From IMG/VR virus record IMGVR_UViG_3300011923_000001: 54,645 nucleotides of DNA; one strand, 5' to 3'. The stretch comes from a virus. The translations under genes and the position numbers were made by a program. The notes below the pieces were generated by a model. It was not told where the DNA came from and did not search any database. It saw only the letters and a list, made by a program, of their open reading frames with translations. This document shows positions 2,867 through 51,961 of the stretch, piece after piece. Each line of letters begins with the position of its first letter. The stretch's first letter is position 1.

Positions 2867-3337
2867 ATGAGTCTAAATAGACCAAAAGCCAAGCGCATGA
2901 CTGCGGCTCAGGCTGTGAAGTACATGAAAAAGCACGAAACACAGGTTCGCGCACAACTGGCAAATGTAGGAAGTATTGGTGAATCTGTGCTTAGAGAACA
3001 TTTAAGGATTGAAAAAATTAAATATGTTCAAGAATTTAAGTTTTCACCGTCAAACCGATACAGGGCTGACTTTTATCTGCCTGATTTCAATGTCTTGGTT
3101 GAAGTTGAGGGTGGTACACGGAATAAAAGCCGACACACCACACATGAAGGTTATTCAAATGACCTGAAGAAATACAATATAGCTCAAATATTAGGCTATT
3201 CCAGATTAGCATTTACTACAGAGCAAGTAAATAAGGGAGATGCGATTAAAACTATTAAACATTTTATCGCTGTGACCACTGGTCAAGTTGTGGTGGATTT
3301 AAGTGCCATCAAGGGGGCAGCTCATGCTATTTGCTAA
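2867..3337 (+). CDS. Vsr/DUF559-like (PD-(D/E)xK fold) endonuclease
   Basis: RADFYLPDFNVLVEVEGG...H matches the aDFyl...EvDG core of Vsr-like nucleases. Confidence 0.5.
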   Translation: MSLNRPKAKRMTAAQAVKYMKKHETQVRAQLANVGSIGESVLREHLRIEKIKYVQEFKFSPSNRYRADFYLPDFNVLVEVEGGTRNKSRHTTHEGYSNDLKKYNIAQILGYSRLAFTTEQVNKGDAIKTIKHFIAVTTGQVVVDLSAIKGAAHAIC

Positions 3338-3554
3338 TTATTTAATCGGTTTTATGGGCGGTTTTGTTATTTGTTATGTCTGGCTCCATTGTTATCTCGA
3401 AAAGAAAATAATTACAGAAGGGCAAGTAATGATTGGTTCTTCGACTTATAGGGCGATAGAAATTGAAGAAGAAGGGGAAATCGATTGCTCGGTTCCTGAA
3501 GTTATTCTGGAAGCTGAAAAGAAAAACAGTATTGAGGGTAAAAATAATGGCTAA
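3324..3554 (+). CDS. Small membrane protein (76 aa)
   Basis: ATG at 3324 preceded by aggggg. Hydrophobic N-terminus LFANYLIGFMGGFVICYVWL. Confidence 0.4.
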   Translation: MLFANYLIGFMGGFVICYVWLHCYLEKKIITEGQVMIGSSTYRAIEIEEEGEIDCSVPEVILEAEKKNSIEGKNNG

Positions 3555-5347: not shown

Positions 5348-6696
5348 AAGACATATTAAAAGACATGCTTATTGTTGATAATTTCGCTGGTGGCGGTGGT
5401 ACTTCAACTGGAATTGAAATGGCACTCGGCCGTCCAGTCGATATAGCAATTAATCATGATCCTAAAGCTTTGGCCATGCATCGTATAAATCATCCCACAG
5501 CCGATCACTATGAAGAATCTGTTTGGGATGTTGACCCTATTGAAATAACGAAGGGAAAGCCTGTAGGTATTGTTTGGCTTAGTCCTGATTGTAAGCACTT
5601 CAGTAAAGCGAAAGGTGGTAAACCAGCAAGCAAAAATATTCGTGGCCTAGCATGGGTAGGGTTGCGTTGGGTTGCATTAAAAAAGCCTATTCTATTTTTT
5701 TTAGAAAATGTCACTGAGTTCCAAACGTGGGGCGATTTAGATGAAAACGGCAGACCATGCCCTAAACGCAAAGGTCGCACATTCAATAGTTTTGTGAATG
5801 CCTTAAAAAGACATGGGTATCATGTTGAATACAGAGAATTAAGGGCCTGTGAATATGGCGCACCTACTATTCGTAAGCGTTTTATCCTTGTCGCTCGTCG
5901 TGATGGGCTACCTATAGTCTGGCCAGAGCCAACACACAAACCACGATCAAATAACCTGGTGCAAAAAGGTATTTTAAAACCAGAGAGAATAGCCGCTGAA
6001 TGTATTGATTGGACAATACCTTGTCAAAGTATTTTTGAGCGCAAAAAACCTTTGGCCAAAGCAACTATGGAAAGAATAGCTGCTGGTATCAATAAGTTTG
6101 TTATCAATAACCCTGATCCATACATTGTGGACGGGAAAGCACCAGTATTAACAGAGTGTGCAAACGCTTCTAATAAACGCTCAATGGCTATAGACGAGCC
6201 TTTACGCACAATTTGCGCTGAAACAAAGGGCGGTCATCACGCAATTATTATTAGCCATTTATCCAAAATGAAAAATAAGTGCATTGGCCAAGATGTTAAT
6301 GAGCCTTTTCACACATTAACGACAGTGAATCAGTTTGCTGAAGTAAGAGCGTTTTTAACTGCTTATTATGGTGGTGAAAAAGACGGTAATTCGGTAAAAG
6401 AGCCTTTACGCACAATCCCGACTAAAGATCGTTTTGGATTGGTCACTGTAAAGTGCCAGCAATACCAAATCATAGACATTGGATTTCGTATGCTGAAGCC
6501 AAAAGAGCTTTATAAAGCTCAAGGTTTTCCAGATCACTATATTTTTACACATGGCATTGATCATTTAGGTAAGAAAATAAAACTGACTCAAACTGAACAG
6601 TCGCGCATGGTTGGAAACTCGGTTCCTCCTGACTTAGCTGAAGCAATTGTAAGAGCCAATGTTGAAGTGATAGCTAAACAGGGGATGGCCGCATGA
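5344..6696 (+). CDS. DNA (cytosine-5) methyltransferase
   Basis: Motif I DNFAGGGG, motif IV SPDCKHFS, motif VI ENV (FFLENVTEF), motif X GNSVPP. Start set at the ATG at 5344. Confidence 0.85.
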   Translation: MKDILKDMLIVDNFAGGGGTSTGIEMALGRPVDIAINHDPKALAMHRINHPTADHYEESVWDVDPIEITKGKPVGIVWLSPDCKHFSKAKGGKPASKNIRGLAWVGLRWVALKKPILFFLENVTEFQTWGDLDENGRPCPKRKGRTFNSFVNALKRHGYHVEYRELRACEYGAPTIRKRFILVARRDGLPIVWPEPTHKPRSNNLVQKGILKPERIAAECIDWTIPCQSIFERKKPLAKATMERIAAGINKFVINNPDPYIVDGKAPVLTECANASNKRSMAIDEPLRTICAETKGGHHAIIISHLSKMKNKCIGQDVNEPFHTLTTVNQFAEVRAFLTAYYGGEKDGNSVKEPLRTIPTKDRFGLVTVKCQQYQIIDIGFRMLKPKELYKAQGFPDHYIFTHGIDHLGKKIKLTQTEQSRMVGNSVPPDLAEAIVRANVEVIAKQGMAA

Positions 6697-48847: not shown

Positions 48848-49441
48848 CTATTGATTTAATTTAGAAACAGCTTCTTTTAATAAATTAGGGTCTGTAGCGA
48901 AATACTTCTGAGTTGTTGAAATTGAAGAATGCCCCATAAGTTCTTTAATAGAATAAATATCAACATTATTTCTAATTAGTCTGGTTGCAAAAGCACGTCT
49001 ACCACTATGAGAAGTTGCTTCAATATTTGCTTTTGAATAGCAAATCTTTATCATTTTTCTCATTGTGTCTTGCGTAAATGCCCCGCCTTTCTGTGATAAA
49101 AATAAAGGAGCATTCATGTCATCTAACTGTCGGTGATTCATTATGTAATCATATAAATACTGTCTCGCTTCAGCATTCACAAGATAAACTTCACGGAATT
49201 TACTACCTTTGGTGTACTGGGCCAGCAGCCGTATTGTTTCTTTTATTTCATATCTGGCTGGATCAAAAACATCACGAATTGTTAGAGCAGCCATTTCCTT
49301 AGCTCGCAGGCCAAGAAAGTGAGAAAAGTACAAAACGCAGATATTCCGTAGATTATGCCGATCCTTCTCCCAGATCATATCTAATGTATGGGTAAACTCT
49401 GAAACAGATACAAATGGGGCAACCCCTGTTTTTTTAGCCAT
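48848..49441 (-). CDS. Tyrosine recombinase (XerC/D-like; likely multimer resolution)
   Basis: Catalytic residues LGLRAKE (R), HSGRRAFAT (HxxR) and LMGHSSISTTQKY (H, Y). Start set at ATG 49441, preceded by agaggg. Confidence 0.85.
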   Translation of the reverse strand: MAKKTGVAPFVSVSEFTHTLDMIWEKDRHNLRNICVLYFSHFLGLRAKEMAALTIRDVFDPARYEIKETIRLLAQYTKGSKFREVYLVNAEARQYLYDYIMNHRQLDDMNAPLFLSQKGGAFTQDTMRKMIKICYSKANIEATSHSGRRAFATRLIRNNVDIYSIKELMGHSSISTTQKYFATDPNLLKEAVSKLNQ

Positions 49442-49518
49442 ACAAAACCCTCTATTTATATTTTCATGGAATAGGTGATTATCCATGACGTATAATTTTG
49501 AGAGTATTATAAAAACAA

Positions 49519-49550
49519 AAATGTCCGAAAAGATACATTTTCGGACATTT
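49519..49550. promoter_or_regulatory. 13-6-13 perfect inverted repeat: candidate recombinase core site and/or minus-strand terminator
   Basis: aaatgtccgaaaa gataca ttttcggacattt. On the minus strand it is followed by ttttgttttt and a TATAAT-like box. Confidence 0.5.
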
Positions 49551-49691
49551 CTGTTAGAGCTTTGAAACTTCACCTTAGATTACGCTTTTTGCCCACCTAA
49601 CCTATGACCAAAATAGGAGAGCAGGGCAATGATACATCATTAAAAAAATAAATAAAAACACTTCTTGAAAATATAATTATATTTACATTTT

Positions 49692-49721
49692 TTTACATTA
49701 CTTTTATTTTTCAGATTATAT
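49692..49721 (+). promoter_or_regulatory. Candidate promoter (TTTACA-N18-TTATAT) for the non-coding unit
   Basis: Hexamers read by eye in an AT-rich tract, so the false-positive risk is high. Confidence 0.2.
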
Positions 49722-49727
49722 TTTTTA

Positions 49728-49816
49728 TATACTTGCTTCAGTGAAATCTCAAAACCCCTCAGAGGTTTCATTATATTTTAACTCCCTAACTTCAACATGA
49801 GTTAGGGAGTCTTTTT
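49728..49816 (+). ncRNA. Putative short structured RNA: two hairpins ending in an intrinsic terminator
   Basis: Hairpin tgaaatctc/gaggtttca (49742-49770) and hairpin actccctaac/gttagggagt (49781-49810) followed by cttttt. Confidence 0.3.
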
Positions 49817-49818
49817 AA

Positions 49819-49867
49819 CCCATCTGATGAGCTTGTGAAACTCAAGCGAAACCAACATGGTCATGGG
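49819..49867 (+). ncRNA. Hammerhead ribozyme, type I topology (predicted cleavage after C49862)
   Basis: cccau CUGAUGA gcuug-ugaaacu-caagc GAAA cca-aca-ugg UC auggg. All invariant core positions and three helices are present. Confidence 0.6.
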
Positions 49868-50069
49868 ACAGCGCACAGTAATATGAATCGAAAGACATTG
49901 CTAGGACTGCCAACGAATGTGCGCAAGTAGTTGGACGGCATAGCCCGATATTGGACGATCGATTTTCTGTTGAATGATCCAAAAAAGCTGCTATGGGCAT
50001 AACGTAACAGATGACAACTTGGAAAGACAGTAAGCAAAAGGCCAGTCGAAAGATTGGCCTTTTGCTTTT
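49868..50069 (+). ncRNA. ORF-poor, GC-richer RNA segment downstream of the ribozyme, ending at a GNRA-capped terminator
   Basis: No ORF of 60 aa or more, a 7-bp helix gcgcaca/tgtgcgc (49871-49877/49918-49924), a small GAAA-capped hairpin near 49883-49898, and a terminator at 50034-50069. Confidence 0.3.
50034..50069. terminator. Strong bidirectional terminator with a GAAA tetraloop
   Basis: gcaaaaggccagtc GAAA gattggccttttgc followed by tttt. Confidence 0.75.
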
Positions 50070-50295
50070 GTATAAATATTAGAAATCAGGGTGGCTAAGA
50101 TAAATGAATTTGAAATTAAGGAAACAAACAGGTAATTAAATAAATAAATCGTTTGAATATTTATATATTACATTTAAGTAACTATATTTAAAGAATGCGT
50201 TAAAAATATAATTATAATTACCTCTTAATTTATTCAAATTGTTGTTTTTAATTTATCTCTTAAGTATTGCAAATAAAGGGTTTTAAGTAAATATA

Positions 50296-50312
50296 TGGTC
50301 ATTTACCTGACG
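50296..50312 (+). repeat. Isolated iteron-like site (tggtcatttacctgacg)
   Basis: 16 of 17 nt match the iteron core, about 260 bp upstream of the array. Confidence 0.6.
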
Positions 50313-50480
50313 CTTAATTTACTTGATTTTTATAAAACATAAATAACATTATATAAATGGAAATACACTTTTTAAAGTGAAAATATAATTTACTTAATTG
50401 ATTAATTTATATTCTAACTGATTTTTGATAAGTAAAGCTTATAAAATAATCAATTCTACTTATATTAAAGCAAAAAAAAG

Positions 50481-50530
50481 CCTTTCTTCTTTCTTCTTTT
50501 TATATATTCTTTCTTCTTTCTTCTTTATAT
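50481..50530. repeat. Duplicated polypyrimidine tract (ttctttcttcttt..tatat, two copies)
   Basis: cctttcttctttcttctttttatatattctttcttctttcttctttatat, directly upstream of the iterons. Confidence 0.7.
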
Positions 50531-50573
50531 TCCCCTGTAAACAAGTCATATCATGTGTTACAGCGACTAAATG

Positions 50574-50702
50574 TGGTCAATTACCTGACGCTTTATGGTC
50601 AATTACCTGACGCTTTATGGTCAATTACCTGACATTAATTATGGTCAATTACCTGACGCTTTACGGTCAAACACCTGACGCAATATGGTCAATTACCTGA
50701 CG
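50574..50702 (+). repeat. oriV iteron array: six direct repeats of tggtcaattacctgacg (period 22 bp, one 24)
   Basis: Copies start at 50574, 50596, 50618, 50642, 50664 (degenerate) and 50686. Confidence 0.9.
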
Positions 50703-50716
50703 TGGAAAAAATTGGT

Positions 50717-50800: not shown

Positions 50801-51961
50801 ATGTCTAATGATCTTATTAACCAAGATTCCACGATAAAACAAGCAAATAAATTGATTGAATCCGTCTATAGGATGGAAGCCAATGAACAAAAAATCATTT
50901 TGTTGGCCATAAAGCAAGTTTATGAAAAAGAAAAGCGTAAAGAGCCTTTTACAGAACGCACCGAAATCATTATTTCTGGAGCGGAATATGCGCGAGAGTA
51001 TGGCATTTCCAGACAAACTGCATTTGATGTGATCCGAGAGGCTAAAAACACGCTATATGAGCGCTCTTTCGAGTATGACTATCTTAACCCTGAAACAGGG
51101 GAGTCAAAGCCTTTAAGTAGCCGTTGGATCCACGCAAAAGGGGAGACAAAGGCTAAGAGTGAAATTAGTATTTTTTTTGCCCCAGCAGTTATCCCGCTTA
51201 TATATCTGGTACAGAAAGAATTTACCCTATTAGATATATCTGAAATTGGTCGTCTCAAAAGCAAGTACGCTATACGATTGTATGAACTTTTAATGAAGTG
51301 GAGAAATGCGGAATATCAGCCCAAAATGGAATATCAGGATTTACGGAATAAGCTTGGATTGGTAGATGCCGATTATCCTGTTATGGCTGATTTTAAAAAG
51401 CGTGTGATCGATGTAGCAGTTAGTCAAATCAACAAAGGTACAGGTTTCGTTGGATTGAAATATTCAACTTTAAAAAAAGGTGTGAAGATAACTCATTTCG
51501 TATTCAGCTACACCAAGTATGACAATGACACACTCAATATCACCCCAATTAAGCCTCAATCGCACACAGCGAAAGAAAAGCCTAAGATGATAGATGTGAC
51601 ACCAAAAAAGAAAAAAGAAGCAAATACGGCAAAACAGAGCGATTCTAACGACACGTTTGAATTAGTTCCTGTTGATGTAGTCCAGAAAAAAACCGCAAAA
51701 CGACATTATGATTTTGCCATGAGTGAATCACAAGCATATATGTTTGCTCATAAAATGATTAAAAAGATCAAAGAAAAAGATCAAAGATTTATGCATCTGG
51801 AAAAATTGGCGTATGAAGGTGAGCATGAAAATAGCTTTTTAAAGCGCGTGGTAGAGGACTTACTCATTGGAACATTTAAGCCATACGCTGAAGCTTTACG
51901 GACGCTAGGATATAAACACCACAATAATTCAGCAGACGGACAACTGGCAGTTGATGAGTAA
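50801..51961 (+). CDS. rep: Rep_3-family iteron-binding replication initiator
   Basis: IKQANKLIESVYRMEANEQKIILLAIKQV is the Rep_3 N-terminal signature. The iterons lie immediately upstream. Confidence 0.9.
   Translation: MSNDLINQDSTIKQANKLIESVYRMEANEQKIILLAIKQVYEKEKRKEPFTERTEIIISGAEYAREYGISRQTAFDVIREAKNTLYERSFEYDYLNPETGESKPLSSRWIHAKGETKAKSEISIFFAPAVIPLIYLVQKEFTLLDISEIGRLKSKYAIRLYELLMKWRNAEYQPKMEYQDLRNKLGLVDADYPVMADFKKRVIDVAVSQINKGTGFVGLKYSTLKKGVKITHFVFSYTKYDNDTLNITPIKPQSHTAKEKPKMIDVTPKKKKEANTAKQSDSNDTFELVPVDVVQKKTAKRHYDFAMSESQAYMFAHKMIKKIKEKDQRFMHLEKLAYEGEHENSFLKRVVEDLLIGTFKPYAEALRTLGYKHHNNSADGQLAVDE

Follow-up and report, generated by a model that had tools for sequence, protein, structure and literature searches.

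The GC-richer island between the tyrosine recombinase gene and rep of the virus-derived sequence IMGVR_UViG_3300011923_000001 (IMG/VR; 54,645 nucleotides (nt), called the window in the following, to which all coordinates refer unless another locus is named) is probably an independent RNA gene, a portable self-processing cassette whose RNA acts in trans, and not a regulator of the replicon in which it resides. The cassette would consist of a leader, a type-I hammerhead ribozyme, a structured RNA of about 170 nt and a terminator (Table 1), and we refer to the RNA downstream of the predicted hammerhead cut, from 49863 to about 50070, as X. In line with the first-pass annotation of the window, the island differs clearly from its surroundings, with a GC content of 0.38-0.49 over 49750-50050 versus 0.15-0.25 in both flanks, and the gap holds no credible coding sequence: between the recombinase gene, which is encoded on the minus strand and whose PHROG-matched part begins with the ATG at 49441, and rep (start at 50801) no open reading frame (ORF) is longer than 58 amino acids and none is frame-kept in relatives.

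The hammerhead core that had been noticed in the letters alone is part of a full type-I hammerhead with every core base in place. According to the rules of Perreault et al. 2011 (PMC3088659) for the core and the core-adjacent pairs, C3 U4 G5 A6 N7 G8 A9, G12 A13 A14, A15.1-U16.1 and H17 are all present, and the core-adjacent pairs U2.1-A1.1, G10.1-C11.1 and A15.1-U16.1 are standard, with no core-adjacent mispair. The ribozyme is assigned to type I because helix I is open, helices II and III being closed by loops, and the minimum-energy fold gives the three-way junction together with its helices. The best Rfam match is HH9 with 25.5 bits and an E-value of 0.0012 at a curated gathering threshold of 52, and a scan of the whole window at gathering thresholds yielded zero matches. 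The hammerhead models of Rfam appear not to cover the variant at 49819-49867, though the core rules are obeyed.

Among the relatives the core is the same, and in Alexa the sole difference is at N7, a free position. Helix I is swapped as a whole, from CCCAU/AUGGG in the window to GCGGU/ACCGC in contig L061 and to ACCCA/UGGGU, ACCCU/AGGGU and other versions in further contigs, and the pairing is retained in each of them. The invariance of helix II results from the search pattern, in which this helix was fixed. With this pattern the same ribozyme was found in 41 IMG/VR contigs and seven GTDB genomes, in which helix I varies yet pairs. Self-cleavage between C49862 and A49863 is expected, as the ribozyme is complete, conserved and covarying. 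In about 25 viral contigs the same hammerhead occurs without X and is followed after 20-30 nt by a ribosome-binding site and an ATG; there it would trim the 5' untranslated region (UTR) to a short leader with a 5'-hydroxyl end. Provided that it cleaves as predicted, this hammerhead is a widespread "5'-end maker" of phages.

Some hammerhead loci deserve a separate remark. The copies close to a ribosome-binding site and an ATG, all with identical helix II, are found in IMG/VR contigs L041, L054-L056, L062-L073 and others. L043, L046, L047, L049, L053 and L059 have a variant whose stem III is enlarged by an insertion of about 60 nt; in L043 there are also over ten transfer RNAs (tRNAs) and, on the minus strand at 577-814, a gene for a permuted (two-piece) transfer-messenger RNA (tmRNA). 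In L044 the hammerhead heads a tRNA array.

The first-pass annotation had suggested a comparison with relatives, and the island is indeed conserved: using blastn, positions 49814-50033 were found to be about 75% identical to unannotated intergenic DNA of seven cultured Acinetobacter phages. As these phages are otherwise unrelated to the window, the structured segment is more than a chance arrangement. A megablast search with 24.6 kb of the window revealed nothing else shared with phages or plasmids, and blastp identified zero proteins common to the window, Alexa and SH-Ab 15497. The carriers of X comprise the seven cultured phages, seven IMG/VR contigs and one Acinetobacter metagenome-assembled genome. 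Alexa is a P2-like temperate myovirus with X directly after the integrase gene; SH-Ab 15497, DMU1, JeffCo and relatives of these phages are siphoviruses of 43 kb that lack an annotated integrase and carry X between a helicase gene and tRNA-Arg(CCU), and the hammerhead-X unit is also present in uncultivated phages of about 62 kb.

Additional copies of X were obtained with the hammerhead pattern in the Acinetobacter metagenome-assembled genome L036 and in the IMG/VR contigs L008, L045, L058, L068 and L074, and a covariance model of the X core detected a divergent copy in L061 (82 bits, E = 2e-18). In total, this model recognised 13 full copies with E-values from 1e-18 to 1e-36, and the hammerhead is located 5' of all 13. 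A degenerate pattern of the whole of X recovered the same IMG/VR contigs and L081, which is related to L061 and has lost by deletion the ribozyme together with the 5' portion of X, including the 5' pseudoknot strand. X is rare, and the copies found follow this hammerhead except for the 5'-truncated one in L081; three of the four discovery routes depend on the hammerhead (the blastn query spans it, the pattern is the hammerhead itself and the model was run on loci fetched in this way), and only the whole-X pattern scan of IMG/VR could reveal a free-standing X. An exact X-motif pattern and a looser version matched only L008 in IMG/VR and gave only chance matches within coding DNA in GTDB genomes and JGI metagenomes, and BLAST with L061 and L058 returned no additional cultured relatives.

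The alignments of these copies show a fold that is supported by covariation, namely a P1/P2 pseudoknot, a long P3-P4-P5 arm, a single strand and the P6 hairpin. Helix I and the 5' strand of P1 are separated by 3 nt, and four sequence versions of P1 are present among the lineages: GCGCACA/UGUGCGC, GAGCGC/GCGCUC, GCGCAA/UUGCGC and CACC/GGUG. The 7-bp helix that had been reported here earlier is retained as a pairing, which is kept by compensatory change; its reading as a simple closing helix is replaced by that of a pseudoknot arm. The length of P1a ranges between lineages from almost zero to about 45 nt and, unless the element is nearly missing, it can be drawn as a hairpin. In P2, five of the eight pairs are changed on both sides and 98.9% of the cells are paired, while one U·G pair is invariant, and this pair identifies the functional strand. 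P2 runs directly into the P3-P4-P5 arm, in which both-side changes affect five of six pairs in P3 and three of seven in P4/P5. The arm contains two conserved internal loops, …ACGAUA…/…UAAAAGCC… and CG/GA within CGAU…AAUGA, and the internal-loop bases CGAU and AAUGA are nearly invariant.

For the whole of X, the counts were made on a model-guided alignment of 11 distinct sequences with 26 modelled pairs. In this alignment 92.6% of the cells pair, compared with 24-46% if the partners are slid, and changes on both sides occur in 17 of the 26 pairs, compared with 6.9±1.7 in shuffled alignments (0 of 500 reach the observed value) and one to two with slid partners. A MAFFT alignment of eight sequences points in the same direction (8 pairs versus 3.1±1.1).

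Also in agreement with the first-pass annotation, the body of X matches no Rfam 15 family: at E≤10 no family was obtained for the window (221-nt search), SH-Ab 15497, L036 or L061, and the sole Rfam matches in the searches with X are terminator look-alikes. ARAGORN gave no call in the window and none in the X of any lineage, even at relaxed settings, and the Rfam tRNA and tmRNA models had no match on X; together with the lack of a conserved tag frame, this led us to reject a tRNA, a tmRNA and a two-piece tmRNA. Other candidates were dismissed as well. Drum and the other motifs described in 2017, whose presence in Rfam is assumed, were set aside, as no Rfam family matches X. Resemblances to RNase P, group I introns, twister and the hairpin ribozyme, noticed by eye, received no support from Rfam models. 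A TnpB/IscB guide RNA was discarded, as only L061 encodes TnpB downstream of X, X does not lie on the side where a TnpB guide would be expected, and the other loci lack the gene. We found no earlier description of X in the literature; fragments are possibly contained within bulk catalogues of candidate viral RNAs (PMC10690425). The ribozyme is a new representative of a known type, and a structured RNA placed behind such a hammerhead in tRNA-type slots is a new variation on RNA-processing arrangements known from phages.

The type of slot becomes apparent from the nearest replicon relative, the 55-kb A. baumannii plasmid pTG31986, whose RepB is 69% and whose iterons are 77% identical to those of the window. 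Both have the same gene order of Y-family polymerase, ParA, integrase, gap, iterons and rep, and the same leader architecture of two hairpins with a U-run after the second, and both leaders end with ...TCTTTTTAA immediately 5' of the RNA gene. This gene is X in the window; in the gap of pTG31986 it is a tRNA-Arg(UCU) with its own terminator, which takes the place of X. On the 3' side of X, the siphoviruses have tRNA-Arg(CCU), the window, Alexa and L061 have a terminator, and L008, L036, L058 and L068 have a degenerate tRNA-like element with encoded CCA. X sits in a slot type that is used by phages for tRNA genes. In such a slot the hammerhead would provide the 5' end of X by its predicted cleavage as RNase P does for a tRNA, and the 3' end would arise from the terminator or from an RNase P cut at the next tRNA.

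The tRNA-like elements themselves differ between the loci. In L008 the element is located at 1329-1411 and was called by ARAGORN at relaxed settings only, with a four-base anticodon; the Acinetobacter-phage copies have a good T-arm and an "anticodon" loop of 8-9 nt with UCCC. In L061 a tRNA-like 3' end (T-arm and CCA, recognised by eye) lies just upstream of the hammerhead (~3300-3208, minus strand); it has a different 9-nt loop and was called by neither ARAGORN nor Rfam. In these two divergent lineages tRNA-like elements accompany X on opposite sides. Furthermore, minus-strand genes near X in L061 (1436-2494, 4380-4901 and 4983-7751) encode TnpB (OrfB_IS605/Cas12f-like), a Tad2-like protein (anti-Thoeris) and an LPD39 polyvalent protein, which suggests an accessory or anti-defence neighbourhood.

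Taken together, we propose the following course of events. Transcription would begin in the AT-rich leader, and the hammerhead would fold and cut itself at C49862/A49863, which would remove the leader and leave X with a precise 5'-hydroxyl end starting with AUGGGAC. The terminator, a GAAA-capped hairpin of 14 pairs which had already been pointed out and is present both in the sequence and in the predicted fold, would define the 3' end. The resulting RNA of about 205-210 nt would correspond well to the ribozyme-processed RNA of about 205 nt with defined ends that the first-pass annotation had envisaged. The released X would fold into the P1/P2 pseudoknot, the P3-P4-P5 arm with its conserved internal loops, the single strand and P6, and would work in trans, alone or with a host factor. 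As blastp between the window, Alexa and SH-Ab 15497 revealed no phage protein that co-occurs with X, it should act alone or together with host factors. Invariant unpaired bases in combination with a pseudoknot and variable peripheral hairpins are the anatomy of RNAs that bind specifically or are catalytic, and the neighbours of X are accessory or host-directed (tRNAs, the Tad2-like gene in L061 and the integrase-proximal moron positions), which favours a trans-acting RNA directed at the host. Our best guess is that X is an accessory, host-directed RNA that may bind or mimic a component of the RNA/translation or defence apparatus of the host. The hammerhead-X unit has spread to a phage-plasmid and to Acinetobacter phages that are unrelated to each other, some of them temperate and others apparently virulent, and this points to an advantage that is independent of lifestyle and replicon.

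Several points weigh against this interpretation. L081 keeps X without a ribozyme, which means that the unit can decay. There are only about nine sequence lineages, most of them from Acinetobacter phages, so the covariation represents few independent events, and the alignment behind the count of 17 of 26 pairs was fitted to the model. The hammerhead scores below the curated cut-off of Rfam, and the P6 hairpin of the window is degenerate (-0.2 kcal/mol). Furthermore, a terminator-like hairpin ends 2 nt 5' of the ribozyme, so that possibly only part of the transcription reaches the latter. Finally, no specific target or partner was indicated by the analysis, and the functional part is a guess.

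Among the other explanations, a natural allosteric ribozyme in which X senses a ligand or a protein and switches the adjacent hammerhead, so that cleavage sets the fate of the transcript, keeps a small share of probability. The pseudoknot strand starts 3 nt behind helix I, X resembles riboswitches in its pseudoknot, its highly conserved unpaired bases and its variable peripheral hairpins, and the 5' strand of helix I could alternatively be bound by a second AUGGG (49993-49997). However, nothing is located downstream that could be regulated, as X is followed by a terminator, a tRNA or a tRNA-like element, the hammerhead precedes ordinary genes without X in about 25 contigs, and L061 has retained X in combination with a wholly different 3' strand of helix I.

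The first-pass annotation had derived a role in copy-number, immunity or maintenance control from the position beside the replication origin, and we regard this as very unlikely. In this case X would act as an antisense RNA or countertranscript on rep, the iterons or the recombinase, and its location between the recombinase/ParA genes and the iterons/rep, in the same orientation as rep, fits such a role, as does the Rfam model ctRNA_p42d, which matches weakly (15 bits, E = 1.3-8.7) and over the terminator hairpin only. The comparative data argue against it: X is found in phages with unrelated replication modules, and the nearest replicon relative pTG31986 has a tRNA in the slot. X is antisense to no gene and does not overlap with rep or the rep leader, and its complementarity to the transcripts of the window, rep and int included, does not exceed 11 nt, whereas shuffled versions of X give 10-14 nt. 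Because the complementarity does not exceed chance, because X is present in phages without this replicon and because the sister plasmid uses the slot for a tRNA, we assume that X is not the copy-number controller of this replicon.

Slightly less probable still is that the conserved sequence acts as DNA, as an attachment or recombination site or as a cassette boundary for the neighbouring tyrosine recombinase. Such a recombinase adjoins X in the window and in Alexa, the P6 motif is an inverted repeat with a 6-nt spacer, and direct repeats of P6 flank RNA modules, with an insert of about 270 nt between two copies in L045 and L074. Nevertheless, the X-bearing siphoviruses have no annotated integrase, pairing is kept via G·U pairs, which are possible on one strand only, the orientation of X is always that of the hammerhead, and all 170 nt covary as RNA, far beyond P6. 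For the P6 motif alone, the idea of a DNA site may apply.

The remnant of a coding gene, which the first-pass annotation had named as an outcome that would speak against an RNA, or a small protein or leaderless peptide translated from the AUG exposed at the 5' end by the predicted cleavage, can practically be dismissed, since the short ORFs that overlap the region (two are annotated in phage Bhz20) conserve no reading frame in X, the indels are not multiples of three, the substitutions are compensating pairs, the peptides from the 5' AUG vary in length and sequence (MGQRTVI, MGQSA, a 13-mer and a 22-mer) and L061 starts with ACCGC and has no AUG. Overall, the allosteric, DNA-site and coding-remnant explanations are less likely than a trans-acting host-directed RNA.

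The P6 motif is of interest beyond X. It consists of GAC(A/U)G, a stem of 4-5 bp and a GAAAGA or GAAUAGA loop, and is present in 2-4 copies per locus, whose stems differ in sequence yet pair. Alexa, L045, L058, L068 and L074 also have the motif directly upstream of the hammerhead, where L008 and L036 carry a variant, and in L045 and L074 there is yet another copy behind an inserted RNA module of about 270 nt; the modules around the copies are arranged in a different order from contig to contig. The motif looks like punctuation between exchangeable RNA modules and could be a processing site, a protein-binding hairpin, as it resembles the boxB hairpin of lambda, or a recombination boundary. More conserved and apparently structured non-coding modules lie between P6 hairpins in L045 (730-985), L074 (324-561), L058 (~5560-5776) and L036 (1832-1915). 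One of them has a long stem CCUAUAUUAAAGAGCG…CGCUCUUUUUAAUAUAGG with a boxA-like CGCUCUUU, and the inter-P6 modules gave no Rfam match at gathering thresholds.

A more daring idea, to which we give clearly less weight than to the RNA cassette as such, is that X represents a new class of functional RNA with a demanding task, perhaps as a ribozyme, perhaps as a decoy that binds a host protein of RNA processing, translation or defence with high affinity. It would be exchanged between phages as a self-processing cassette and would form, in some Acinetobacter phages, one unit of an array of modules split by boxB-like hairpins, a shuffleable tool-kit of non-coding RNAs.

With regard to expression, both leader hairpins of the first-pass annotation are present: the first, described with 9 bp, extends to 11 pairs in the predicted fold, and the second, with its U-run, has 12 pairs and is terminator-like according to the scan. 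The leader (49727-49818) folds jointly at -28.9 kcal/mol (z = -5.9), and the U-run of hairpin 2 stops 2 nt short of the hammerhead. Candidate sigma-70 promoters for the leader are listed in Table 1; the number of matches in the consensus scan was not above that of shuffled sequences. A terminator-like hairpin directly precedes the RNA gene in both plasmids, in the window at 49740-49816 (X) and in pTG31986 at 3287-3366 of locus L031 (tRNA-Arg). This suggests that expression from the slot may need read-through or antitermination or an overlap between promoter and hairpin.

The siphoviruses have a palindrome that contains an extended -10 promoter, TTGCGC-17-TGATATAAT (L002 2975-3001, L003 2975-3002). 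As the start would lie only a few nt 5' of the hammerhead, the ribozyme would remove little beyond the 5' triphosphate end, and this hints that the 5'-hydroxyl or the exact 5' base of X matters. A hairpin in front of the hammerhead as one shared feature was considered and rejected, as this position is occupied by the palindrome around the extended -10 promoter in the siphoviruses, by a P6 copy in Alexa as well as in the 62-kb phages and by the terminator-like leader hairpin in the window.

The surroundings of the cassette contain further elements. Upstream of the start codon of the recombinase gene (49441) there is an 18-pair hairpin at 49514-49555, a terminator of the minus strand by its score, and pTG31986 has an equivalent in the same place (L031 ~3098-3140). 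Six direct iterons (ATGGTCAATTACCTGACGC-like) are located upstream of rep at 50573-50705, a lone iteron-like copy lies about 260 bp further upstream (50296-50316), and a CTT/TTC polypyrimidine run is present at 50484-50525.

Table 1. Features of the RNA cassette in the window and positions of P6 motif copies in other loci.
Feature	Position	Strand	Basis or remark
Candidate sigma-70 promoters for the leader, TTTACA-17-TATTTT and TTTACA-16-GATTAT	49682..49719	+	consensus scan, putative
Leader hairpin 1, 11 pairs	49740..49772	+	predicted fold; 9 pairs of the first-pass annotation at 49742-49750 / 49762-49770
Leader hairpin 2, 12 pairs (49781-49810) followed by CUUUUU, terminator-like	49781..49816	+	terminator scan and fold
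Type-I hammerhead ribozyme	49819..49867	+	core bases, three helices, Rfam HH9, minimum-energy fold
Hammerhead helix I, CCCAU/AUGGG, 5 bp	49819-23 with 49863-67	+
Hammerhead core CUGAUGA	49824-30	+
Hammerhead helix II, GCUUG-UGAAACU-CAAGC, 5 bp	49831-35 with 49843-47	+	loop UGAAACU
Hammerhead GAAA	49848-51	+	GAA at 49848-50
Hammerhead helix III, (A)CCA-ACA-UGG(U), 4 bp	49851-54 with 49858-61	+	A49851-U49861
C17 and predicted cut	C17 = 49862; cut between C49862 and A49863	+
P1 5' strand GCGCACA, pseudoknot arm	49871..49877	+	pairs with UGUGCGC 49918-49924 in the P2 loop
P1a, variable-length hairpin AGUAAU / AUUGCU	49877..49902	+	alignments
P2, CUGCCAAC with GUUGG-A-CGG, bulged A, loop holds the P1 3' strand	49907..49938	+	covariation
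P3, CAUAGC 49939-44 with GCUAUG 49990-95	49939..49995	+	encloses internal loops, P4 and P5
P4	49951-55 with 49978-82	+
P5	49958-49975	+
Conserved single strand GGCAUAA...AUGACA (consensus GGCAYAA…AUGACA), then P6	49996..50031	+	alignments
P6 hairpin motif GACAACUUGGAAAGACAGU	50013-50031	+	kept in alignments except JeffCo
Intrinsic terminator, 14-pair stem (50034-50065), GAAA loop, U-run to 50069	50034..50069	+	sequence and predicted fold
P6 motif copies in other loci	L001 2979-3004, 3184-3205; L045 295, 478, 708, 986; L058 5536, 5777, 5995
P6 motif copies in other loci	L074 66, 302, 562; L008 1100, 1303; L036 1590, 1809

Phage hammerheads are common and their purpose is mostly unclear; the case described here has a definable product. 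X offers RNA biology a compact fold of about 170 nt that is supported by covariation, and as A. baumannii phages are under development for therapy, a phage RNA directed at the host, if X is one, would be worth knowing.

X shares some features with known systems. Like the antisense copy-control RNAs of plasmids (RNAI and countertranscript RNA), it would be a small terminated RNA near a replication origin; in contrast to these, it is neither antisense nor complementary to rep or a primer, is much more structured and is present without this replicon. The motifs reported by Weinberg et al. 2017 (drum, DUF3800-I, FuFi-1 as well as skipping-rope; PMC5737381) resemble X in their many conserved unpaired bases, a pseudoknot-type fold, a 3' terminator and a location outside 5' UTRs. 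X differs from them in that it has no Rfam 15 match at E≤10, assuming that these motifs are contained in Rfam, and in that no associated protein family was found by blastp. GOLLD, ROOL and the stable RNAs C and D of T4 are phage-borne conserved folds in or near tRNA genes, which are excised from longer transcripts and are not known to have a partner. Compared with GOLLD and ROOL, X is far smaller, lacks any similarity in sequence or to the Rfam models and has its own ribozyme.

With regard to the processing, theta ribozymes (minimal ribozymes similar to that of hepatitis delta virus) are likewise small self-cleaving elements beside non-coding RNA genes of phages, where they are found in tRNA clusters and share in end formation (PMC10879173; bioRxiv 10.1101/2023.06.13.544163). 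They belong to another ribozyme class, and their cargo is a tRNA, whereas the cargo of the hammerhead is X. Furthermore, theta ribozymes act on the 3' trailers of tRNAs, in contrast to the 5' end on which the window hammerhead would act. The closest counterparts are the type-I hammerheads of phages and prophages, with the same core, three-helix junction, open helix I and phage setting, often proximal to an integrase gene, whose presumed role is the trimming of phage transcripts (PMC3088659). The ribozyme of the window differs from these in that it is fused to one structured RNA and is predicted to make the 5' end of this RNA rather than to separate mRNAs.

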